Source: a virus. Taken from it: a stretch of 64,000 nucleotides of DNA. The notes below the pieces were generated by a model. It saw only the letters and a list, made by a program, of their open reading frames with translations, did not search any database and was not told the DNA's origin. This document shows positions 12,678-63,458 of this stretch, piece after piece. Location of the stretch: positions 32,001 to 96,000 of IMG/VR virus record IMGVR_UViG_3300030329_003696. One strand, given 5' to 3'. A program made the position numbers and the translations under genes. Positions within the stretch are counted from its first letter, which is position 1. Each line of letters opens with the position of its first letter.

Positions 12678-14237
12678 TTATATTTCGTGAATTTTATTGA
12701 CAATGAACGAATTATCCTTAGCCACGTCTCCACACAGAAGAAGGTTATTACCTTCATAAAGTATATACTGGTATTTATCTCTTGCCTCTGGGAACACGAC
12801 TACACTATCTAAGGAACATGTATTGTCCTCTATCGTAAGAAAAGCCATCTTCCTCCCCTTAGTTTTACCTCGTTTAACCGTGGTGGTCGCTACTCGGTTC
12901 ACATTAGCTGCTATGCAAAGGTTTTTGCCCGTCTTTCCGTTGAGAACATCCTTGCAGTAAGTATTTGCAACCGATGTGTCCGCTGAGTCAATTTTAGACA
13001 GGGATACTGGACAGCCCAAGAATTTGCCCTCCTGTTCAATGATCCATGCAGGATCATCATCCAAGCTGTATGGAGGGTTTTTGATCAAGTTTGCCTCGTT
13101 TTCCACTATCTGACTTCGTTCGACCTTACTTGTTCCCCCACCCATCTTTTTCGTGGGAGATAGATCTATAAAGCAGTCATACAGATTGTCCCACTGTTTG
13201 CTCTGATAATTCTTTACGACCCAGTTAGACTCTGCCTTAGTTAACTCTCTGAATATAAGGTACTCATAAAGTGCTCTATTTCTAGACGTGTTGGTTGCGG
13301 CTGTAGAGAAAAAGCCTATGGAACATAGTGCTTTGAAGGCTGTCGCATTAATTTTTGGCGACAGGTAAACAATGATGTCCATCCAAGAGAACTCGCTAGG
13401 GTCTTTGCCCGTTTCTTCAGACGCCTCCTGCACAGCCTTCATCACTTTATCGCCCGTTACCCCCGTAAGAGATTTAACGTCCTTGACCCCGAAGTATATC
13501 CCATCATCCTGAATGTTGAATTTGGACTCAAACGAGGAAATCTTGGGAATCTTCACTTCAAGGTCAAAAAGCTTGGCTTCGGAAACCAGTTCATAAATTT
13601 CTTGATGGGGGTCTTGTTTCTCATTCGCATGGTATAGGTAGGACAGGAAGAATTCCTTGGTGTGATTTGCTTTATACCAAGCGGACCAAAATGAGTCAAC
13701 CGCATACGCAACAGCGTGAGACTTGTTGAAGGAGTACCTAGACGACTTCTCGATCCAACCAAAGATCTCAGATGCGGTGTCCTCGTTGACTAATCCAGTC
13801 TGGTGACATCCTAGAATAAAGTCTCCTCGTATCATAGCCATTAGCTCTGCATCCTTTTTACCAATAGCTTTTCTCAGGTCATCGGCCTTCTTGAGGTCAA
13901 AACCTGCAAGCTTCTGTGCTATACGCATAGATTGTTCTTGATAAACAAGTACGCCGTATGTTGGCTTGAATATCTCTTCGAGAGACTCGTGTAGATACGA
14001 GACTTCTTCTTCTTTATTCTTTCTATCAACAAACCTTTGCGTCATAGACTTTCCGTCAATAATCGCCTTCAAACAGCCCGGTCTAATCAACGCTATCAGA
14101 GCCGCAAGTTCCTCTAGATTTGAAGGTGCTAGCCTTTTAGACCAAGCACGCCCAAGGTTACTCTCTAGTTGGAAAACCCCTTTTGTGAGGCCGTCCTTGA
14201 AGAGGTTCCATGTTTTCTCATCTTTATAATCAATCAT
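12678..14237 (-). CDS. dnaE: DNA polymerase III alpha, C-terminal half (fingers/HhH/OB)
   Basis: GVFQLES, LIRPG, TYGVLVYQEQ, LRKAIGKK, YSFNKSHA, MAFLTIED. Confidence 0.93.
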   Translation of the reverse strand: MIDYKDEKTWNLFKDGLTKGVFQLESNLGRAWSKRLAPSNLEELAALIALIRPGCLKAIIDGKSMTQRFVDRKNKEEEVSYLHESLEEIFKPTYGVLVYQEQSMRIAQKLAGFDLKKADDLRKAIGKKDAELMAMIRGDFILGCHQTGLVNEDTASEIFGWIEKSSRYSFNKSHAVAYAVDSFWSAWYKANHTKEFFLSYLYHANEKQDPHQEIYELVSEAKLFDLEVKIPKISSFESKFNIQDDGIYFGVKDVKSLTGVTGDKVMKAVQEASEETGKDPSEFSWMDIIVYLSPKINATAFKALCSIGFFSTAATNTSRNRALYEYLIFRELTKAESNWVVKNYQSKQWDNLYDCFIDLSPTKKMGGGTSKVERSQIVENEANLIKNPPYSLDDDPAWIIEQEGKFLGCPVSLSKIDSADTSVANTYCKDVLNGKTGKNLCIAANVNRVATTTVKRGKTKGRKMAFLTIEDNTCSLDSVVVFPEARDKYQYILYEGNNLLLCGDVAKDNSFIVNKIHEI

Positions 14238-14613
14238 TATCTTTACTCAAATAGTTAATTGCTCTTTGTAAACCTTCAACACTATCGCTAAATGCTCCAA
14301 TTCCCCTATTGCACTTATGACATAGCCATCCCCTAAAAACATCTGTTGCATGGCAATGGTCAACGACAAAGGGTGATGCTCTCTTGCTGCCTTCGCCAGA
14401 GACTTCCGATGCTGTTCTTCCACAAATTGGACACTCATAATCTTCTGGCGGTCGCCCATATTTGGTCCGAAGCTCTTTCCTTCTTTTGCTTAAATGCCTA
14501 TTACAATCTTTACATTCTGTCCTCAAATAGTTTTCCCCACCCCTTTTACTGAAGTGTATTGTGGGTAGTTCTTTTTTACATTTACTGCATGTTTTATACG
14601 TACAAATTTCCAT
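14230..14613 (-). CDS. endonuclease VII-type HNH homing endonuclease
   Basis: CPICG..VVDHCHATDVFRGWLCHKCNRGIG; N-terminal CxxC..CxxC. Confidence 0.85.
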   Translation of the reverse strand: MEICTYKTCSKCKKELPTIHFSKRGGENYLRTECKDCNRHLSKRRKELRTKYGRPPEDYECPICGRTASEVSGEGSKRASPFVVDHCHATDVFRGWLCHKCNRGIGAFSDSVEGLQRAINYLSKDND

Positions 14614-15268
14614 CAGCAAACGCCTTATCAAATTTCATATTTCTGTATACTGCACGTCTTGATTTTTGTAGTTTAATAAAGATGTTTGCAGTGTCTTTAA
14701 CGTCTTGGAGGGCGTCATGAGCGTTGTCTCCGGAGAGACCCATGCGTTCTCTGAGGCTATCCATACTGATGGACTTTACGTTTGGATCTCCTTCAGTCCA
14801 AAGCCACACGTCATCCATAACATCAATTTTATAAATCTGGTGAAACAACTTCTGGGATTGTCGCTTTTCGTCCCAAGGCCCGTATTCTTTGCACAACCTG
14901 TTCACGATATGCATGTCATAACCGATAATATTAAAACCGGCGGGAATCGGTGCGAAGTATGGCGTTCCCTTCCAATTATATTTATTGACGAAGTTGCAGA
15001 ACTTTTTCCACACACCCTTCGGAAGCGGTGCTCTCGCCAGCTTCGATCTGGTCTGCCCAGTTACTTTCAACGCACCCTCTTCTAGTGGGTCAACTCCAGC
15101 AGCTATAGCCTCATCGTCATCAATAATAGGACGCATCATACTATTGAACTCACCCTTTAGTCTAAAGTTTCTTCCGTCTAGGGCAATCGCAGCGATTTGT
15201 GTAGGTTGGCATCGTAAAGGATTTCTACCGCCTGTCTCAAAGTCAAAAACAATTATGTCACGATTCAT
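14594..15268 (-). CDS. DnaQ-like DEDDh 3'-5' exonuclease
   Basis: VFDFETGG, GFNIIGYD, AHDALQD. Confidence 0.88.
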   Translation of the reverse strand: MNRDIIVFDFETGGRNPLRCQPTQIAAIALDGRNFRLKGEFNSMMRPIIDDDEAIAAGVDPLEEGALKVTGQTRSKLARAPLPKGVWKKFCNFVNKYNWKGTPYFAPIPAGFNIIGYDMHIVNRLCKEYGPWDEKRQSQKLFHQIYKIDVMDDVWLWTEGDPNVKSISMDSLRERMGLSGDNAHDALQDVKDTANIFIKLQKSRRAVYRNMKFDKAFADGNLYV

Positions 15269-16887
15269 ACTAACTCCTTGATCATCATTAGTTTATCCAA
15301 AAGGTTGATGCCTAAAACATCAAACTTAACGTGTCCGAGAGCCTCTAGGTCGGCCATTTCAAGGCCAGCGATCTTCTCTGTTCCGCTTTTAGGATTAACC
15401 ATAGGGCAAACTTTGTAAAGTTCTTCTGCCGATATTACAACACCGGCTGCATGTTTTCCTTGTGTCTTAAATGTTCCTTCTATGTCAATAGCCTGCTGAA
15501 ATAGTTCAGAATAATCACCCTCCAATTGACCCGCATCATTTATAAAACAATAGTCACGGAGGTCGTCTGGATTATTGAGCAATGCCCAACGAATAATCGA
15601 TCTGTCTTCTTCATCCATCTCGGCTAACTGGTCTGAGATAGCGGCTTCGTCTGGAATAGACTTAGTGATTTCATTCATTTCACTAAAACCGCAAGCATTG
15701 TTCACTCGCAACACTTCTTTCAAAGCACTGCGTCCCTGAAGTCTACCAAATGTTAACATCTGACTAACATTATTTTGTCCGTATTTATCTTTTAGGTAGG
15801 TAATGATTTCATCTCTTTTGCCACCGGGTACGTCCATGTCAATATCGGGTAGGGAGATGTGGTCATCTGTGTTACGACCGGCATTGTAGAATCTTTCAAA
15901 CAGTAAATCAAACTCAATGGGGTCTATCTGAGTTATACCAATGAGGTACGAGATTAGACAACCCGCTGCTGAACCACGCCCCGGACCTACCATCCACCCC
16001 TGAGTAACGCAGTAGTTAATAACATCCCAAACAATTAGAAAATAACCAAAAAGCTTGGCCTCTTCAATAACCTCATATTCGGAACGAAACCTATCCCCAT
16101 AAATCTTTTTCAGTTCTGGGTCTTTTATCTTGTGCGACAGAAGATCCGTCCACCCCTCACGAGCAAGCTCTCTAAGGTATTCCTTTTGAGTTTGTCCGTT
16201 CGGTGTATCGAATCTTGGTAGAATCGGTTGGCTAAGTATATTGTAGTTCTCGCACTTTTCAAAGATCTCGTCAAACGAATCAATCACTGGGTCTTCTGTT
16301 AATATCTTTGCTACTTCGGACCTATCTTTCAGGTAAAAGTCATTGGTCTCAAAGAAAACCGAGTTATCGATATCTTCTTTATTTGCTAATGATTTCTTAA
16401 TCTTTGGTAGCGTTGTCTTCATGCTTGAACATAATATGACCCTGTGTAATGGTGCGTGCTCCCTTTCTGTATAGTAGACATCCATAAAGGCTTCCGACTT
16501 CTTGTAAAAGTCCTTGCCTTTAATTGGTGATTTAGCTGGGTCTTCGGCAACACAGATAAAGTTCCCGTGGGAAGATAGCCTAACCAATAGTGGTTTGTCA
16601 ACAACTCCGTCCGAATCTATGCTGGAGACTATCTGTATTAGCTCAAGCCAGCCGGAGTGATTTTTGGCAAATAGCGAAAACCCATCAAAAGAACAGCCCA
16701 GTATGGGCTTTATATTATTACTTATGCACGCCTTGTAAAAAGTAACAGCACCAGATATAGACTTGTAGTCCGCAATTCCGCAAGCCGGAAAAGAATTTTG
16801 TGAGCATTTTTTAGCAAGCTCTCTAGGCTTAGAGAAACCCTTTTGTAGAGAATAGTGTGTGTAATTGCACAGTGGAAACCACTTCAT
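15265..16887 (-). CDS. dnaE: DNA polymerase III alpha, N-terminal half (degenerate PHP + palm)
   Basis: THYSL, GPGRGSAAG, LLFERF, LPDIDMD, GKHAAGVVI, KFDVLG. Confidence 0.93.
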   Translation of the reverse strand: MKWFPLCNYTHYSLQKGFSKPRELAKKCSQNSFPACGIADYKSISGAVTFYKACISNNIKPILGCSFDGFSLFAKNHSGWLELIQIVSSIDSDGVVDKPLLVRLSSHGNFICVAEDPAKSPIKGKDFYKKSEAFMDVYYTEREHAPLHRVILCSSMKTTLPKIKKSLANKEDIDNSVFFETNDFYLKDRSEVAKILTEDPVIDSFDEIFEKCENYNILSQPILPRFDTPNGQTQKEYLRELAREGWTDLLSHKIKDPELKKIYGDRFRSEYEVIEEAKLFGYFLIVWDVINYCVTQGWMVGPGRGSAAGCLISYLIGITQIDPIEFDLLFERFYNAGRNTDDHISLPDIDMDVPGGKRDEIITYLKDKYGQNNVSQMLTFGRLQGRSALKEVLRVNNACGFSEMNEITKSIPDEAAISDQLAEMDEEDRSIIRWALLNNPDDLRDYCFINDAGQLEGDYSELFQQAIDIEGTFKTQGKHAAGVVISAEELYKVCPMVNPKSGTEKIAGLEMADLEALGHVKFDVLGINLLDKLMMIKELV

Positions 16888-16927
16888 AGTTTGATCCTTC
16901 AATATTTATATTCAACTTGTCTACCCT

Positions 16928-23050: not shown

Positions 23051-24262
23051 CTAGGAAAATAGTTCGGAAATTACTTTTCCTGAATTAGCTATTTTCATAG
23101 GTCGCCCACTATTACTTGTGTAGGTGGTTTGTAGCGAAATGCCAAGAGCCTTACAAACTGAGGCCATAACATCTTGGGATGAATATGCCATTGACTCCAC
23201 TCGTGTGCCGTCTTCGTTAGTTTCACCAACGGCTATGCCGCCGTTCATGCCAGCACCGCCAACGACAACACTCCAGCTTCTCGCCCAGTGATCTCGTCCA
23301 GCGTTTTGATTGATACGTGGAGTCCTGCTAAATTCACCCATCCATATGATAGCTGTGTCCTCCAATAACCCTCTTTGCTCTAAGTCCTCTACTAACGCAC
23401 TCATGCCTTGATCTAGCATGGGTAGTTTCGTGTCTCTTAAGGTTGGGAAGATGTTCTGATGATTATCCCATCCACCTAAACCAACTTCTACAAATGGAAC
23501 TCCAACCTCTACTAAGCGTCTAGCCATCAAGCATCCTTTGCCAAAGCTGTTATCCCCATACCTGTCCCTTACAGATTGTGGTTCTTTTGCTACTTTGGTT
23601 GCGTCCATCTCTGTGCTTGTCAAGACGTTGAAGGTCTTTCTTAATATTTTCTGATGCTCCTTTGCCATACTTCCCCGATTAGTGTTGATAAAATTAGTTT
23701 CTATCATATCGAGAACTTGTGCTCTTTGATAAAATCTTTCATCTATCTTTATGTTGAGATTTCTAATGTTGCCATCACTATTGAGAACCAACGGAGAAAA
23801 CTCTGCACCTAAGAAGCCTGCCCCCATACTCCCACCATTTACAGATATAAACTGTGGAATCATAAGCTCTCTGTCTAATTGCTTAGAGATGACGGAGCCA
23901 TAACTTGGGTGAACCATACTTTGGCTTGGAACATATCCTGTGTGCATGTAGTATCTGCCACGCATATGATCTGCTTCTCTGGTACTCATGCTACGGATGA
24001 TTGCCATGTTGTGCATCTGCTTGGCCATTAATGGCATGTGCTCGCAGATTTCAACGTCGCCAGTCGTAGAGATTGGCTTAAAAGGCCCACCAGTAGCAGC
24101 TCCGGGTTTTAGATCCCAGATATCCATAGTAGATGGTCCACCGCCCATCCAAAGTAGGATGGCCGATTTACCGTTTTTCTTTAGCTGCTGCTCATTAGCT
24201 TTGAGCGTCGTGGTTAAGGTGGCAACTCCCGCTAGGGATGTTAGAAATTCTCTTCTTTTCAT
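23051..24262 (-). CDS. DUF1501 family protein, Tat-exported (copy 1)
   Basis: KRREFL; LWMGGGPSTMDIWD; ARRLVEVGV; GWDNH; GEFSRTP..GRDHW. Confidence 0.92.
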   Translation of the reverse strand: MKRREFLTSLAGVATLTTTLKANEQQLKKNGKSAILLWMGGGPSTMDIWDLKPGAATGGPFKPISTTGDVEICEHMPLMAKQMHNMAIIRSMSTREADHMRGRYYMHTGYVPSQSMVHPSYGSVISKQLDRELMIPQFISVNGGSMGAGFLGAEFSPLVLNSDGNIRNLNIKIDERFYQRAQVLDMIETNFINTNRGSMAKEHQKILRKTFNVLTSTEMDATKVAKEPQSVRDRYGDNSFGKGCLMARRLVEVGVPFVEVGLGGWDNHQNIFPTLRDTKLPMLDQGMSALVEDLEQRGLLEDTAIIWMGEFSRTPRINQNAGRDHWARSWSVVVGGAGMNGGIAVGETNEDGTRVESMAYSSQDVMASVCKALGISLQTTYTSNSGRPMKIANSGKVISELFS

Positions 24263-24263
24263 A

Positions 24264-24641
24264 TTAAAACCTAAAGTGGAAGAACAGCCCACTGAATGGG
24301 GCGGGATAAACCGGCACGGGCTGTGGTTGAATAATGACGGGAGGTCCGTAATAGTGATGATGAATCATTGGCGGATATACCCTGTACTGATATGGATAAA
24401 CGTATGGCCTACCGATTATTATGCTTCCATGTCTATAGTTATGACTGGGTCTAACTTGGGGCTGCTGAGGCCTCTGCCAATCTTGTTTTCCAAAACCAGA
24501 AGGTCTTTGCGGTTGTGGCCTTGTAAAATCCCTAGGGACGCTCTTTACAGTCGGCGGTTTAATAACTTTACGCTCAGGCTGTTGTGCTTCAGCAGACAAC
24601 GGTATAAAAAACAAACATAACAGTGATGCTAAATATTTCAT
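24264..24641 (-). CDS. secreted Pro/Tyr/Gln-rich low-complexity protein
   Basis: signal peptide (AEA|Q), YPY/HHHYYGPP, C-terminal FFHFRF. Confidence 0.6.
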   Translation of the reverse strand: MKYLASLLCLFFIPLSAEAQQPERKVIKPPTVKSVPRDFTRPQPQRPSGFGKQDWQRPQQPQVRPSHNYRHGSIIIGRPYVYPYQYRVYPPMIHHHYYGPPVIIQPQPVPVYPAPFSGLFFHFRF

Positions 24642-24845: not shown

Positions 24846-26108
24846 TTAAATGAGAATGTCTGTTAGTATTTTGCCACCGTCTACAATTTCTATTGGGCGG
24901 TCACCGGGAGCCATAAGCTCTTTATCAGCGACAATACCAAGTCTGTTGTAAATAGTAGCTGCCCAGTCTTCTATATTAACTGGGTTTTGATCTGGTTCGC
25001 TCGCCGTAGCGTTGGAGGTTCCGTATGTCATCCCCCCTTTGATTCCACCGCCAGCCAAAACTGTACTGAATACTTTTGGCCAATGGTCTCTTCCTGCACG
25101 ATTGTTAATCTTTGGAGTTCTTCCAAATTCAGAAACCACACAAACCAAAGTAGAATCTAATAATCCACGTTGATCTAAATCTTCAATAAGGGTTGCAAAC
25201 CCTTGATCAAAAGCTGGTAGCTGACTTTTCATTCCGTTCGCTATGTTGTCATGCATATCCCATCCGCCATAGGTTAAAGTGACGAAGCGTGTACCAAATT
25301 CCACCAATCGTCGAGCGAGTAACATTCTAGCACCAGCGGTGTTTCTACCGTATTTGTCTCTGGTTGCCGCTGACTCCTTCTCAAGATCAAACGCATCTTT
25401 TGCGTTCTGGTCTCCTATTAGGCTATAGGCACGGTCATAAAAAGAATTGACAGCCGAGACGGAGTCGGCGTTTTGTTTTTTATTGAAGTCGGTATTTACT
25501 ATGTCTAGCACACGCCGCCTTCTGGAAAATCTCTCGTCTGGAACTGGAACTTTTAAGTCTCTAACCTCGAAGCCCTCGCTTGCCGGATCAGACCCTAAAC
25601 CAAACCCAGAATATGAGCTACTTAGATATCCAGTACCTGCATATTCATTGGGTTGGTTTGGTATGCAGACATATGGAGGAAGGTTTTTGCGTGGGCCAAA
25701 TTCATGTGCAACCACTGAACCCATAGATGGGTATTGAAGGGCTGGGCTAGGTCTATAGCCAGTAAACATATTGTGTGTCCCACGTTCATGAGCAGCCTCC
25801 CCGTGTGTAATACTGCGGATAATTGCAATCTTGTCTGCTACCTTGGCTGTTTTGCCCAATAGTTCTCCAAGGCGTATGCCCGCAACGTTGGTACTAATAC
25901 TACCAAGTGGTCCTCGGTATTCTAACGGGGCGAATGGCTTAGGATCAAATGTCTCCTGATGAGCCATTCCACCCGGAAGATAAATGAAAATAATACTTTT
26001 AGCTGGCCCTTCTTTACTATCGTAGTGTTTTTGATCTGCTCTAGCGAGAGACGCACCTAAAGTACCTAAAACGCCAGCCTTTAAAAAATATCTTCTTTTC
26101 ATCATCAT
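24846..26108 (-). CDS. DUF1501 family protein, Tat-exported (copy 2)
   Basis: KRRYFL; YLPGGMAHQETFDPKP; GWDMH; SEFGRTP..GRDHWP. Confidence 0.93.
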   Translation of the reverse strand: MMMKRRYFLKAGVLGTLGASLARADQKHYDSKEGPAKSIIFIYLPGGMAHQETFDPKPFAPLEYRGPLGSISTNVAGIRLGELLGKTAKVADKIAIIRSITHGEAAHERGTHNMFTGYRPSPALQYPSMGSVVAHEFGPRKNLPPYVCIPNQPNEYAGTGYLSSSYSGFGLGSDPASEGFEVRDLKVPVPDERFSRRRRVLDIVNTDFNKKQNADSVSAVNSFYDRAYSLIGDQNAKDAFDLEKESAATRDKYGRNTAGARMLLARRLVEFGTRFVTLTYGGWDMHDNIANGMKSQLPAFDQGFATLIEDLDQRGLLDSTLVCVVSEFGRTPKINNRAGRDHWPKVFSTVLAGGGIKGGMTYGTSNATASEPDQNPVNIEDWAATIYNRLGIVADKELMAPGDRPIEIVDGGKILTDILI

Positions 26109-26272: not shown

Positions 26273-27532
26273 TTAAAGAATTACTTTTGCTTCACCCTCC
26301 AACAAATATCTGGGACGACCAGACATGTCAGTACGTTGAATCGCTCCATCAATTCCAAAATGGTCAAACAGCGTTGCTTGTAGATCGAGTGGTCCCACTG
26401 GGTTTTCTATGGGGCTATACGACCTGTCTGCTTCACCAATCGTTCTTCCTGATTGATAATTACCACCAGCCATCATCATTGGTGTAATTGCAGGCCAATG
26501 GTCTCTACCAGAGTTAGCATTGATTTTGGTTCTACCAAACTCTCCGGTAACTACCAGTAAAACTTTCTCATTTAAGCCTCTATCCCAAACATCTTGTAAA
26601 AATCCTGCAATCGCTTTGTCGATGGGGGGAACTCTTCCCTTCAATGACTTAGAAATATTACTATGCATGTCCCATCCACCATAGTGCAGGGTGATGAACT
26701 TGGTTCCATACTCAACTAATCTTCTTGCTAATATCATTTGTTCACCAATGTCGTTGGCCTTTTCAGAACCGTACAGAGCTTTTGTCGTTTCTGATTCTTG
26801 ATCTGTAGCAAACGCATCTTTAGCAGAACCAAGAATCACGTCATAGGCTTGCCCCTTATAGAAACCAACTGAATCAGCACTCTTCCCCTGAATACTTTTT
26901 GATGCTGAACCAAGTGCTCCCAATAGATCCTTTCTAGTGTTGAATCTGTTAATCTCAATCCGTGGTTTAAGATTATCCTTATTGGATGGGTCAAATGGTT
27001 TGTATGCACCACCAAGCCAAGCTCCCTCATCCCCCTCGATTTTGCCTTGCTTCACATAAGAAGGCACTCCATTTCGAGGGTGGTTGGTTCCATACACTGA
27101 AGATATCAGCGAACCAAAAGAGGGGTATTTAGCAGTGGAGGTGGTTGTTCTTTCTGGATTATAATGCCCAGTCATCATAAAGTGGGTACCCTGTCTATGT
27201 GAGGAATCTTTATGACTAAACGAATTAACCACGTTTAACTTAGCTGTGTGTTTAGAAAGCTCGTACCAGTCCTGACCTAAAGTAATGTTAGTACTGGAGT
27301 CATGCGTAGCACCGTTTACTGGTCGCCACTCTGTGGGTACCGTGTCCTTTGGTGCGTGAAAAGTTTCAAACTGCGTAGGACCGCCACCAAGCCACACCCA
27401 GACAACAGCTTTGTCATTCAGGCTCTGTGCATTAGCGGCAAAGACTTCATCAGAGAAGCCTGCCATTGTCATCCCCGCTCCTATAGATCCAACCCTAAGA
27501 AAATCCCTTCGATTAAAGATAAAATCGAGCAT
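26273..27532 (-). CDS. DUF1501 family protein, Tat-exported (copy 3)
   Basis: NRRDFL; WLGGGPTQFETF; GWDMH; GEFGRT..GRDHWP. Confidence 0.92.
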   Translation of the reverse strand: MLDFIFNRRDFLRVGSIGAGMTMAGFSDEVFAANAQSLNDKAVVWVWLGGGPTQFETFHAPKDTVPTEWRPVNGATHDSSTNITLGQDWYELSKHTAKLNVVNSFSHKDSSHRQGTHFMMTGHYNPERTTTSTAKYPSFGSLISSVYGTNHPRNGVPSYVKQGKIEGDEGAWLGGAYKPFDPSNKDNLKPRIEINRFNTRKDLLGALGSASKSIQGKSADSVGFYKGQAYDVILGSAKDAFATDQESETTKALYGSEKANDIGEQMILARRLVEYGTKFITLHYGGWDMHSNISKSLKGRVPPIDKAIAGFLQDVWDRGLNEKVLLVVTGEFGRTKINANSGRDHWPAITPMMMAGGNYQSGRTIGEADRSYSPIENPVGPLDLQATLFDHFGIDGAIQRTDMSGRPRYLLEGEAKVIL

Positions 27533-31567: not shown

Positions 31568-33008
31568 CTTCTTCCTCTATATCAAATGGTAAATCTGAAC
31601 CCTCAATTATGCCTCCCTCTGGGGAAGAGCGAACCTCGTCTCTAGTTCTAAGCTCTAGGAGTTGAGAGTGAGACCCTATCATATTCATATTAATGTAATT
31701 CCCATCAAGAAGTCCAGCCCCATGCCTAGCTTTGAGGGTAACTAGCTTTCTATTACCCGAGCTTGGACCGTCCTCTGCTAGCTCCTCTGCCGACTTTAAT
31801 TTAAATATGGAGAATGACGTGCATAACCAGATGAGTCTGTCAGATCCACTCACAGCGTCTGTAGATTCCTTTGTTATCCCGTCCCTATTGAGTTGTACAA
31901 AGGAAAGGCAAGGGAAATCTAATTTTACCGCGAGATTATGAAGATTGGTGATCTGAAAACCCAACGCTTGATATTCCTGCATATTGTTATTGATTGAGCT
32001 AGAGGACATTAGCTTTAGGTAATCGTATACAACTAGACAGTCGTTAGTTTTTCCAAACTCGTCTTGACCAACCTCTTGCATAATCCAACGCTTTATTGTG
32101 TTGAGTATGGTTTCAAACGGGGCACCAGCAACACTCACATATGTGTAGGGAATATCCCTAATCTCCTCCATAGCATTGCGAACTTTTATTAGCTTTTCAT
32201 CATCCTCAGAAAATCGTCCGGTAGAAACTTCTTCGATTGGAACTCCACTAATGTTAGAAAGGATTCTGTTGAGGTGATCTTCCTTGCTCATTTCGGTATC
32301 CAGCATCAACACTGGAATACCTTTACGGGCATTGTGTAGTGCTACATTATCAGCAAAAACTGACTTACCAACCCCGGGGCGAGCAGATACAAGATCGACA
32401 CACTTACGCCGTAAGCCACCACCGACAACAGCATCAAACCGAGGGAAGCCACTTGATAGTCCGATTTGGTCACACTTATTCTCCACCAAAAAATCTAAAT
32501 ACTCATCTATGTCATCTCCGAGCTTTTCCGGCTTTTGACCAATCTCATCATTTCTGAGAAATTCTGTTATTGGGTTCTCAATTAAGTTGACAATTTCATC
32601 TATAGATTCATCGCCTTTTATCTCGTCGATATCCTTTGATATTTTATGAGCAACCTTCTTGGCCTGTCTAGCCAGTTCAAACTTTTTGATTTGGGCAGCA
32701 AAGTGAGGAACGTTTTCCCTCTTCACTGGGTAATCCATTAAGGCGTTTATATACTCAAGCTCCTGCTTTGTGTGAACGCACTCAGACAAATTCAACTGTT
32801 CGGCAGCAGAAAGTATGGACGGTATATCTACGTGAGCATCCGACCTTAAAATTTTCTCAATACATTTAAATAGTACCTGATTGTTTCTGTGTGCAAAACT
32901 ATTATGCGTTAGAAAATCAGATATCTCAACATATGATTCGACACCAAAAGAGAAGAGACCGGCTAGAACAGCTCTTTCGGAACCGAGATCTGACAATTTA
33001 GAATCCAT
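31554..33008 (-). CDS. dnaB: replicative DnaB-like helicase
   Basis: SERAVL, ARPGVGKS, DTEM, YDYL, QLNR, KARHG. Confidence 0.92.
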   Translation of the reverse strand: MDSKLSDLGSERAVLAGLFSFGVESYVEISDFLTHNSFAHRNNQVLFKCIEKILRSDAHVDIPSILSAAEQLNLSECVHTKQELEYINALMDYPVKRENVPHFAAQIKKFELARQAKKVAHKISKDIDEIKGDESIDEIVNLIENPITEFLRNDEIGQKPEKLGDDIDEYLDFLVENKCDQIGLSSGFPRFDAVVGGGLRRKCVDLVSARPGVGKSVFADNVALHNARKGIPVLMLDTEMSKEDHLNRILSNISGVPIEEVSTGRFSEDDEKLIKVRNAMEEIRDIPYTYVSVAGAPFETILNTIKRWIMQEVGQDEFGKTNDCLVVYDYLKLMSSSSINNNMQEYQALGFQITNLHNLAVKLDFPCLSFVQLNRDGITKESTDAVSGSDRLIWLCTSFSIFKLKSAEELAEDGPSSGNRKLVTLKARHGAGLLDGNYINMNMIGSHSQLLELRTRDEVRSSPEGGIIEGSDLPFDIEEEDAQN

Positions 33009-60526: not shown

Positions 60527-60724
60527 TTAATTATCTTCTTCTAGGGACTCGCGTATAAGCTCGATCAGATCGTTCAACTCTTTGGGTGTTACTTCAATAC
60601 CTTGTTCGGCCATACTCTGTCGTATCATGGATGGGTTCTGTCGGTATTCGTCTACTGCATTTTGAAGTCTTTGGTGATTGTTACTAACAAACTCTAACCA
60701 AGTCTTTCTTATCCGTTCATCCAT
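60527..60724 (-). CDS. small hypothetical protein
   Basis: ORF. Confidence 0.55.
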   Translation of the reverse strand: MDERIRKTWLEFVSNNHQRLQNAVDEYRQNPSMIRQSMAEQGIEVTPKELNDLIELIRESLEEDN

Positions 60725-61197
60725 TTGTCAGCCCCTTCTGGTAGGATACACTTTACTCCAAAAAAATGTTCCAACTGTTGGATCATCTTGTCTCGATATT
60801 CATCAAGCATGAAACTTGACTTCATTTGGTTAGCGTCAAATGATGCTAAACCGCAGTTCTCTATGTCGCTTGTTCCACCTTTACTCAGCGGTACTATGTG
60901 ATCTAACGAATACTGCTTTGAGTCCATCAGGTCTATCTTTTCTCCTGATAGGTAACAGTATGGATTTGCTTCCAGTTTATCTCTTAACTCTTTATTGGTA
61001 AACTTTTTCACAATCTTATCTCCAAATTCTTTTCTTTCTGCTTTTGACTGAGTTCTAGCGAAGTTACAGTGTTTTCTATGAATTACTCTTGCGATTGTTA
61101 GTTTATGATGCTTGGTGTCTGTCATTGACTTTCTATTAAAAGTTTTTGGCTTCTCGTACATAAATCTACTAACTTTTTTCATCAATACTTTATTCAT
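60709..61197 (-). CDS. HNH endonuclease
   Basis: CYLSG..SLDHIVPLSKGG..N..ANQMK. Confidence 0.82.
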   Translation of the reverse strand: MNKVLMKKVSRFMYEKPKTFNRKSMTDTKHHKLTIARVIHRKHCNFARTQSKAERKEFGDKIVKKFTNKELRDKLEANPYCYLSGEKIDLMDSKQYSLDHIVPLSKGGTSDIENCGLASFDANQMKSSFMLDEYRDKMIQQLEHFFGVKCILPEGADKWMNG

Positions 61198-61208: not shown

Positions 61209-62120
61209 TTAGTGTAGTGCGTACATGGACTTAGCGTTCTTGAGATGTGAGGCACAGGCACGAATCGCTGCGTCCTTAGACTTGAGTTCGATGTCCCAGT
61301 CGTAGTCATCGCTACATGGAAAATCTACGGGCATGTCTGCGTGACTGCGTGGATTGGTCTTGTCAGGATGTGACTCACTGTAATGAAACAGTGGTTTGCA
61401 AGGCCAAGTCTCTGCACACTCTAGGTAAGTATTCTTGGCTGACGGATTGCACTTGTCGTGCAGGTTGTCGTATGTGATAGGTAAGCTAAAATACTTGAGC
61501 AGGTTATCTACATTCCAGCAACCTTTGTCTTCGTTCTCTAAGACTAAACGAGAAGTTACGCTTTGATCGCACTGGTTTAGGTTAGACATGAAGCGAGCAG
61601 CGATGTCAGCGAGATCGCCCTTAGTACAGTTGACATGGATGTTGATAGGGTTGTAGTAGCTACGCTCACAGCCTAGCTGATCCATGACCCAGCCATGATG
61701 GTTGAGTTCTAGGATCGTCTTATCTACTGACCCTTGATTCTCGCTTGCAAGCACGTTAAACTGGTCAGGATGCGTAGATAACCGCACGCCCCAGAAGTTC
61801 TTGTTTTCCCATGCGGTATCGTTGAGAGTTTCCATGATAGCTTCGTACTGAGGTACGTCTGAGATGTCGTAACCGAACTCAGGATGTGTTAGCACAGGGA
61901 ACAGATTGCTTGAAATGCGATAGCCCCAGCGGTTTTGCCAGCAGTGCAGGATAGCAAGTCTAGTGACTTTGACATTATTGAGCCAGCGTGAGCCTAGCTC
62001 GTTGAGTGCGTGAGAGACACTGTGCTGACTGCACAGGTCATTGTAACGCTTCCATGTCATGGTCTGGAAGGAGTGGCCTTGTTCTTTGAGTTCGTTACTG
62101 ATGCAACATAGATTGTACAT
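61209..62120 (-). CDS. uvsE: UV damage repair endonuclease
   Basis: YRISS, RLSTHPDQF, NIH, LENED, DNLH, FHYS, HAD, ELKSKD. Confidence 0.92.
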   Translation of the reverse strand: MYNLCCISNELKEQGHSFQTMTWKRYNDLCSQHSVSHALNELGSRWLNNVKVTRLAILHCWQNRWGYRISSNLFPVLTHPEFGYDISDVPQYEAIMETLNDTAWENKNFWGVRLSTHPDQFNVLASENQGSVDKTILELNHHGWVMDQLGCERSYYNPINIHVNCTKGDLADIAARFMSNLNQCDQSVTSRLVLENEDKGCWNVDNLLKYFSLPITYDNLHDKCNPSAKNTYLECAETWPCKPLFHYSESHPDKTNPRSHADMPVDFPCSDDYDWDIELKSKDAAIRACASHLKNAKSMYALH

Positions 62121-62154
62121 ACTTGTCTCCTGTTAGTTGGTTAGTATCCACTGT

Positions 62155-62183
62155 ATTATAATTTATCTATCGGCAGATGTCAA
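62155..62183 (-). promoter_or_regulatory. consensus sigma70 promoter
   Basis: TTGACA-17-TATAAT upstream of uvsE. Confidence 0.85.
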
Positions 62184-62228
62184 TAGGTATCTTTAATTTA
62201 TTTTAAATATTTGCGTACCGACAGCGTT

Positions 62229-62500
62229 TATACCTACGAAGAACTATGAAAGCCAGTAGGTATATGGTAGTGTTTATAGGCAGTATCTTACAAGCTAATG
62301 GAAATTTTTTGCTAAAACCGAAGTTATCTTCGTAGGTCTAGGTTGCTCGCCAGCATTGCCTAGATTTAATTTTTCGATACCTCTGAGTGGTCGGACACTC
62401 AACTGCAACCTATACTTCTCAATGGGTCAGGAACGCAAGACTGCACCCAGTTACGTCTTTATACAAATCTATGAGAAGCGATAATACTGAACTACCATTA
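62229..62500 (-). ncRNA. putative structured ncRNA, unassigned
   Basis: ORF-free, at least 8 complementary helices, follows tRNA-Leu; strand inferred from context. Confidence 0.55.
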
Positions 62501-62534
62501 TTATCTAATCATTATATTTAATCATTATATTTAA

Positions 62535-62619
62535 TCTCGATGGAGGGGATCGAACCCTCACTCCCAATAAGGGAACCGGATTTTAAGTCCGATGCGTCTG
62601 CCTATTCCGCCACATCGAG
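62535..62619 (-). tRNA. tRNA-Leu(UAA)
   Basis: CTCGATG/CATCGAG acceptor, TCGGA-CT TAA AA-TCCGG, long variable arm, TTCGA; no CCA. Confidence 0.93.
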
Positions 62620-63055: not shown

Positions 63056-63084
63056 ATTATATTCAATCTATCGTCATTTGTCAA
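63056..63084 (-). promoter_or_regulatory. consensus sigma70 promoter for tRNA cluster
   Basis: TTGACA-17-TATAAT. Confidence 0.85.
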
Positions 63085-63106
63085 TGGGTTCTTTAGATAA
63101 TTTCAT

Positions 63107-63139
63107 AAAAAAAGCCAGCTTTGGTAACAAGGTGCTGGC
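63107..63139 (-). terminator. intrinsic terminator after tmRNA coding piece
   Basis: GCCAGC..GCTGGC + T7. Confidence 0.75.
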
Positions 63140-63383
63140 AAACCCCGTGACCTACGAATAGGTCAGTCGGCCACCTAAGCGGCCATTGCGTAATTCTCTA
63201 CGCCGTTTAAAGTTGTGATAGATTTTTAGCGTAGCCCTTCTATCAACTACGACATGCAGTCATTAACTACGCAACCAGTCGATACCATTACGCCCCCATG
63301 AGTTGGCAAGTGGAGGCGGGGAGAATCGAACTCCCGTCCTGCATTGGTTCACTAATAACGTCTACATGCTTATGCCCGAAGGC
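63110..63383 (-). ncRNA. ssrA: circularly permuted (two-piece) tmRNA
   Basis: acceptor piece (T-arm, CGCCTCCA ending 63311) precedes coding piece GGGGGCG (63297); G3-U70; P2 and pk1 pairings; tag GVENYAMAA* at 63175-63204. Confidence 0.9.
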
Positions 63384-63385
63384 AG

Positions 63386-63458
63386 TACCCCATAGGAGAA
63401 TTGAACTCCTGTTTTCGGCGTGAAAAGCCGATGTCCTAGTCCACTAGACGAATGGGGC
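63386..63458 (-). tRNA. tRNA-Glu(UUC)
   Basis: GCCCCAT/ATGGGGT, TCGGC-TT TTC AC-GCCGA, AGTTCAATTCT. Confidence 0.92.

Follow-up and report, generated by a model that had tools for sequence, protein, structure and literature searches.

A multiply pseudoknotted RNA gene, apparently of a new class, between tRNA-Leu and uvdE in a phage contig

What occupies the gap between the tRNA-Leu and uvdE genes of a phage genome fragment represented by IMG/VR record IMGVR_UViG_3300030329_003696? The stretch of 64,000 nucleotides (nt) analysed here, positions 32,001 to 96,000 of that record, is referred to as the window; it lies within contig C7 (152,655 nt), binned into a 1.36-Mb bacterial assembly. As a preliminary description of this DNA had noted, the gap (62121-62534, 414 nt) is the window's longest stretch with neither an open reading frame (ORF) of at least 45 amino acids (aa) nor a tRNA or transfer-messenger RNA (tmRNA) gene. 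That description proposed a novel pseudoknotted non-coding RNA (ncRNA), and this is borne out by covariation and strand asymmetry, by the absence of coding conservation and by the negative Rfam search: the element is almost certainly a real structured RNA gene. Its class and fold are apparently categorically new and uncatalogued, and its setting resembles that of the phage RNAs GOLLD and ROOL.

Bacteria and phages have few known RNAs that are as large and complex, and most of those whose job is established are ribozymes or belong to core machinery. Why phages keep ornate RNAs next to their tRNAs is a question to which the element contributes an unrelated fold; with five or six pseudoknots in 300 nt, it also offers a tractable target for probing and cryo-electron microscopy.

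A conserved fold on the minus strand

The first eight homologues came from loci retrieved via uvdE. The set was then enlarged by pattern scans of viral and metagenome contigs, which favour near relatives, and confirmed with a covariance model (R1). The 68 distinct homologues analysed (294-337 nt, including a few flanking bases) fall into two paralogous types. Type I comprises 49 members, with a mean identity of 70% among 47 of them. The 19 type II members branch separately in a midpoint-rooted tree, and three comparisons put their identity to type I at 57-64%. Two contigs (G051 and G058) carry one copy of each type, and a profile hidden Markov model found no third paralogue.

Seven nested helices (P1 to P7) and five pseudoknots (PK1, PKa, P8, PK2 and PK3) are predicted on the minus strand, and covariation shows them to be conserved (Table 1). 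Their 5' to 3' order is P1; P2 enclosing P3; P4; P5; P6; P7; the 5' strand of P8; two variable hairpin regions; P6' and P4'; PK1'; the strand of a competing hairpin (ALT); P8'; and a tail. The loop of P1 holds the PK1 strand GGUAGU. In a 47-sequence MAFFT alignment, 97.8% of the cells are paired (slid controls, 34-49%) and two-sided change occurs at 46 of the 65 pairs, and a joint MAFFT alignment of both paralogues (43 sequences) gives 95.8% and 52 of 66, respectively. When kinship is allowed for by a tree-based count, 215 independent two-sided changes are obtained, compared with 6±4 (maximum 21) after shuffling of partners, so that the covariation proposed as a check is found across the family. 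The pairs of the fold also rank at the top of an unbiased mutual-information scan, and alignment-free swaps of partner strands for PK1, PKa, PK2 and PK3 reached the observed score in none of 5000 permutations each. PKa is weaker by alignment columns (81% paired), and it is weak in three type II members. About 47 positions are near-invariant, many of them unpaired.

The assignment to the minus strand follows from the excess of G-U over A-C cells (308 and 46 in the minus-strand reading), and the opposite reading was rejected on the same counts. No reading frame is conserved: the overlapping ORFs of 37-44 aa are not maintained, their lengths are scattered over all three frames, and the median open stretch across homologues is 29-41 aa. 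Searches of Rfam 15, which includes GOLLD, ROOL, OLE and raiA, found no match in the element at E values up to 10 apart from a 14.7-bit chance hit, and none over the element in ten homologous loci at E up to 5. Folding energies are better than those of shuffled sequences, to a modest degree: z is -2.8 on the plus strand and -2.1 on the minus strand for 62229-62500, and -1.1 for the full element (62209-62509), as calculated with a program that cannot form pseudoknots.

Every complementary word listed in the preliminary description does occur where it had been placed, and several acquire another meaning within the conserved fold. The pairing of 62264-71 with 62491-98, taken for a closing helix, is real as the loop pseudoknot PK1. 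Likewise, TATAGG/CCTATA does pair, as P4, which is nested rather than crossing. The CAGTAT/ATACTG helix, on the other hand, is not conserved, since five of its six pairs form in only 41-56 of 66-68 members and both strands covary elsewhere. The element does lie at 62229-62500, as proposed, but those limits omit the 5' strand of P1 and the 3' tail, so that it runs from about 62505, 29 nt past tRNA-Leu, to 62214.

Table 1. Positions in the window of the RNA gene, its predicted pairings and adjoining features
Feature	Position	Strand	Remarks
ncRNA gene	62214..62505	-	about 292 nt; hit by the model at 62209-62509; ends deduced from the structure and the promoter spacing
P1 hairpin	62480..62505 (62505-62499 with 62486-62480)	-	48 independent two-sided changes
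PK1	62496-62491 with 62271-62266	-	14 independent two-sided changes; 19 strand variants, 0/5000 permutations
P2 enclosing P3	P2 62478-62472 with 62421-62415; P3 62448-62441 with 62430-62424	-	covariation
PKa	linker 62457-62453 with P3 loop 62436-62432	-	23 strand variants, 0/5000 permutations
P4, long-range nested	62414-62409 with 62280-62275	-	34 independent two-sided changes
P5 hairpin	62400-62385	-	at P4/P6 junction; 6 independent two-sided changes
P6, long-range nested	62381-62377 with 62286-62282	-	14 independent two-sided changes
P7 hairpin with internal loop	62337..62364	-	covariation; apical loop 62351-62348 in PK2
P8, 10-base-pair long-range pseudoknot	62336-62327 with 62242-62233	-	13 independent two-sided changes, 2 breaks
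ALT hairpin	62264-62256 with 62237-62229	-	rivals P8 for the same strand
3' tail	62214..62226	-	predicted to dock on two hairpin loops in succession (P7, P5)
PK2	62226-62223 with P7 loop	-	34 strand variants, 0/5000 permutations
PK3	62222-62218 with P5 loop	-	13 strand variants, 0/5000 permutations; 100% paired in joint alignment
PK4, sixth pseudoknot, tentative	62217-62214 with 62465-62462	-	only one-sided changes
TATAAT -10 box	62511..62516	-	5-nt gap to P1; weak -35 lies within the tRNA-Leu end; may be the RNA's own promoter
tRNA-Leu(taa)	62535..62619	-	upstream neighbour of RNA gene
TTGACA-17-TATAAT promoter, perfect	62155..62183	-	between RNA and uvdE
uvdE	61209-62120	-	downstream of RNA, beyond the TTGACA-17-TATAAT promoter

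An RNA gene independent of its neighbours

Comparison of the genomic contexts shows that the predicted RNA is a gene in its own right, independent of its neighbours. The co-transcription with tRNAs that had been proposed fits only part of the family. Of the 49 type I copies, nine begin 1-3 nt past a tRNA, 24 begin within 40 nt of one and 33 lie within 300 nt of one, whereas no tRNA is found within 300 nt of any of the 19 type II copies, most of which stand back to back with a divergent gene and whose neighbours are unrelated. A -10 box is present in 12 of the 49 type I copies, including this one, with the same 5-nt spacing in eight of them, and in 18 of the 19 type II copies, 3-4 nt before the P1 column (3 of 67 in control windows). 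The gene downstream of the RNA varies among copies and is often uvdE. A TTGAC element occurs at most 60 nt downstream in 38 of the 49 type I copies, and this promoter separates the RNA from the variable downstream gene.

The region between tRNA-Leu and the RNA also contains a 13-nt tandem duplication with TATAAT (62509-62534, minus strand), which results in two -10 boxes. Type II copies share an upstream pattern of their own (e.g., L128:900-960, L134 and L145), consisting of a T-run, CCAAAAA and then GACTATAAT, without TTGACA and located where gene orientation switches.

These arrangements bear on a cis-regulatory role, in which the RNA would control the downstream gene as a riboswitch, attenuator or thermometer. 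Such a switch would predict the mutually exclusive folds at the 3' end and the frequent position upstream of uvdE. However, the downstream gene is not constant, the intervening consensus promoter is found in the 38 type I copies mentioned above, neither a terminator nor a ribosome-binding site is coupled to the P8/ALT region, and type II copies lie beside unrelated genes, all of which makes this role very improbable.

The RNA is dispensable at one site, and thus accessory. In two loci (L003 and L004), tRNA-Arg is joined directly to uvdE and the RNA is absent, while the flanks share 86-91% identity with the L002 flanks, and the 138-kb L004 contig (88% complete) has no match to the RNA anywhere. 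The type I pattern, the only one applied to 185,579 species genomes, gave two matches, both rejected by the model; BLAST against annotated phages returned only short chance matches to the RNA; and no real match was obtained in 40 GTDB relatives of the assembly, nor any match in contig C13 of the same assembly and five more distant phage contigs.

Presence or absence at a tRNA 3' end could also point to a mobile element, for which the RNA would be the guide or donor (IS110-like or TnpB-like), or to a structure acting at the DNA level, and IS110-like or TnpB-like ORFs do lie near about 12 copies. This explanation is largely refuted and is the most improbable one considered. Both kinds of ORF are absent from the 153-kb C7, and a tRNA usually stands between the ORF and the RNA. 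Furthermore, all the variable loops covary with the RNA's own strands, and the G-U excess points to RNA. No reverse transcriptase was found in the assembly, where a search for retrons yielded no PF00078 match (C7 lacks one end), and there is no constant IS110 or TnpB linkage of the kind expected for a bridge or omega guide RNA, the ORFs being near a minority of copies and absent from C7.

Two kinds of ORF recur in this neighbourhood. One, of 340-435 aa and without a Pfam match, is found closely upstream in about ten related loci (including L005:294-1439, L058:131-1306, L043:2146-3369 and L034:4604-5800), in most cases ahead of tRNA-Leu; it is absent from C7 and gives a weak lead (score 0.84) to IS110 DEDD transposases. 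The other is TnpB/Cas12f-like (PF07282) and has been inserted into the cluster of tRNAs that precedes the RNA (L014:4122-5393, L059 and L072).

The competing hairpin ALT and candidate roles of the RNA

The two alternative pairings that had been proposed for 62229-42 are borne out as ALT and P8. The ALT strand, which follows PK1', duplicates the beginning of the P8 5' strand, and both pair with the same AGGUA segment. ALT is the predicted local minimum-energy fold in 67 of the 68 members; its four core pairs are kept in 61-64 of 64, and the only variation at the core is between C-G and U-G. L062 shows a joint change of the shared base and its two partners, members with AGGUAC have a G opposite, and the ALT strands of L083, L099 and several type II copies track changes in the P8 3' strand. 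Moreover, L116, L122, L129 and L138 retain ALT with its spacer shrunk to a 4-nt loop, and the hairpin overlaps the P8 3' strand, which implies that ALT and P8 are mutually exclusive. Since its column support is below that of the other helices, ALT as a conserved competing hairpin is regarded as well supported, not as proven.

Two other interpretations of ALT were rejected: a terminator, as there is no U run, and a Hoogsteen triplex, which by inspection has the wrong polarity.

Conserved transient helices have been documented in other RNA families, such as in the folding of RNase P, signal recognition particle (SRP) RNA and the hepatitis delta virus (HDV) ribozyme (PMC3695514). Like them, ALT appears to be evolutionarily kept and incompatible with the final fold. 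Unlike them, it rivals a 10-base-pair pseudoknot, whose 5' strand it partly copies, and it is predicted here from sequences. It would offer, throughout the family, a natural example of a strand being displaced in competition with a pseudoknot, making the control of co-transcriptional folding testable.

As for function, confidence is about evenly divided over the reading preferred here, according to which the mature RNA would be a non-catalytic, stable, trans-acting binding RNA with an accessory role. The RNA would be made from its own -10 box, or by read-through of the tRNA operon, with tRNA 3' processing then setting it free. ALT, as a local hairpin, would hold the P8 3' strand while the RNA is being transcribed; after release of the 3' end, P8, on average the stronger of the two, could oust ALT from the pairs that they do not share. 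In geometric terms, P8 makes up almost one full turn within the P6-closed loop, so a free 3' end may be needed for winding through. The tail would then lock onto the P7 and P5 loops, leaving both RNA ends paired and nuclease-resistant, and the resulting binding particle, perhaps oligomeric like GOLLD and ROOL, might engage a factor of host translation or defence as its decoy or scaffold. Such an RNA would help some infections and yet be dispensable.

Several points weigh against this reading. The order of the folding events is our inference. The mean energies (-15.8 kcal/mol for the P8 duplex and -10.8 kcal/mol for ALT) are a rough guide, as the energy of a duplex cannot be strictly compared with that of a hairpin. 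The alignment columns of ALT show three independent two-sided changes against 37 breaks (seven columns), partly due to misalignment, and its variation is mostly one-sided. Finally, the many invariant unpaired bases would suit a binding surface and a catalytic core equally well.

This last point leads to the possibility, which is held to be doubtful, that the RNA is a new large ribozyme with a catalytic knotted core, in which the P8/ALT exchange would be a docking step or an on/off switch, and which would process itself or act in trans on tRNA or other RNA. Its size, its five pseudoknots, the near-invariant positions and a guide-like strand contested by two look-alike strands are compatible with catalysis, as are the nine type I copies that begin 1-3 nt past a tRNA. 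Nevertheless, the register to tRNA ends is not fixed, ranging from 1 to more than 2000 nt in type I and being non-existent in type II, unlike in theta ribozymes; the RNA interrupts no gene; and it lacks the signatures of RNase P, group I, group II and hammerhead RNAs. An equally tentative proposal would see in it a new class of large natural ribozyme or a two-state phage RNA machine, where P8/ALT strand exchange gates a catalytic or binding core and the two paralogues bear different loop codes.

Among known catalytic RNAs, the catalytic domain of RNase P RNA is of similar size, and its P2, P3 and P4 form a helix, a hairpin and a long pseudoknot helix, which P6, P7 and P8 loosely echo in topology. 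However, the long helix of this RNA has no bulged U, its ends are not paired together and it has no Rfam match; the CR-I and CR-V motifs of RNase P are both absent from all 68 members. The group I R motif occurs in two of 68, and the word TAGTC in 29 of 68, but on the variable P7/P8 junction; the element is intergenic. The group II domain V hairpin with its catalytic triad, the SRP helix-8 motif, and the T-loop and 3' CCA of tRNA-like or Y RNAs were each found in 0 of 68. The HDV-type fold is much smaller than this RNA. Theta ribozymes, the HDV-like ribozymes of gut phages, cut within 5 nt of tRNA 3' ends (PMC10879173) and are, like this element, pseudoknotted phage RNAs located 3' of tRNAs, whereas only nine of the 68 homologues start within 5 nt of a tRNA 3' end and the whole type II group is without tRNAs.

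The stable binding RNA preferred here finds its closest parallels in setting in GOLLD and ROOL, which are ornate, phage-encoded RNAs often located in tRNA islands, of about 600 to more than 800 nt with 19-27 stems; both form cages, and ROOL is non-essential in one strain (PMC12286853). The element shares with them the phage origin, the pseudoknots and, for 33 of the 49 type I copies but not for type II, the proximity to tRNAs. It differs from them in length (about 300 nt, as opposed to about 660 and more than 800 nt) and helix order, and their models gave no match at E up to 5-10 in 11 members. The cages raise the question of whether an RNA-only oligomer is the main role, with PK1, PK2, PK3 and P8 partly formed between chains and the loop codes of the paralogues preventing mixing. 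In the two-copy contigs, PK1 and PK3 indeed pair fully within each type (4-6 base pairs) and by only 2-3 base pairs across types. However, covariation is blind to the difference between pairs within and between chains, PK2 and PKa are partly cross-compatible between types, no self-complementary loop is kept family-wide, and the RNA is half the size of ROOL, which renders a cage unlikely as the main role.

RNA C and RNA D of phage T4 are two small stable RNAs made together with the phage tRNAs, of about half the size of this RNA. A collection of 10,006 candidate viral RNAs spans 30-151 nt (Fremin et al. 2023, PMC10690425), a range for which the whole RNA is too long; fragments of it could be among them.

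The phage and its other genes

C7 is identified as a phage by genes for a tape measure protein, DnaB, ribonucleotide reductase, SSB and a UvsX-like protein, and its nearest relatives are IMG/VR contigs of up to 163 kb. The best match of uvdE among annotated phages is 34% identical, and no cultured close relative is found there. The minus strand of the window carries nearly all of the genes, together with four tRNAs and a circularly permuted tmRNA (63084-63400, minus strand; RF04321, 81.7 bits), which adjoins tRNA-Glu, encodes the tag GVENYAMAA and is also carried in permuted form by many related phages. An HNH endonuclease gene (60709-61197, minus strand) directly follows uvdE.

The window contains DUF1501 genes at 24846-26108, 26273-27532 and probably 23051-24292, with no counterpart in annotated phage records. 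The nearest bacterial clusters of such genes belong mostly to Planctomycetota, which suggests, as a lead only, a host from that phylum.

DNA polymerase III alpha is seemingly split (12678-16902, minus strand) into a PHP and NTPase part (15265-16902) and a likely second part (12678-14237), with two ORFs in between. Contig C13 (64 kb) is apparently a fragment of a second, related phage with its own tmRNA and tRNAs. Past the window end, C7 carries nine CCGGG-N4-CCCGG dyads spaced by 0.8-1.7 kb (G000:C7:725-11865), which are not seen in other contigs. A 774-nt stretch of C7 (G000:C7:126730-127493) is 86% identical to contig C9:29606-30378.
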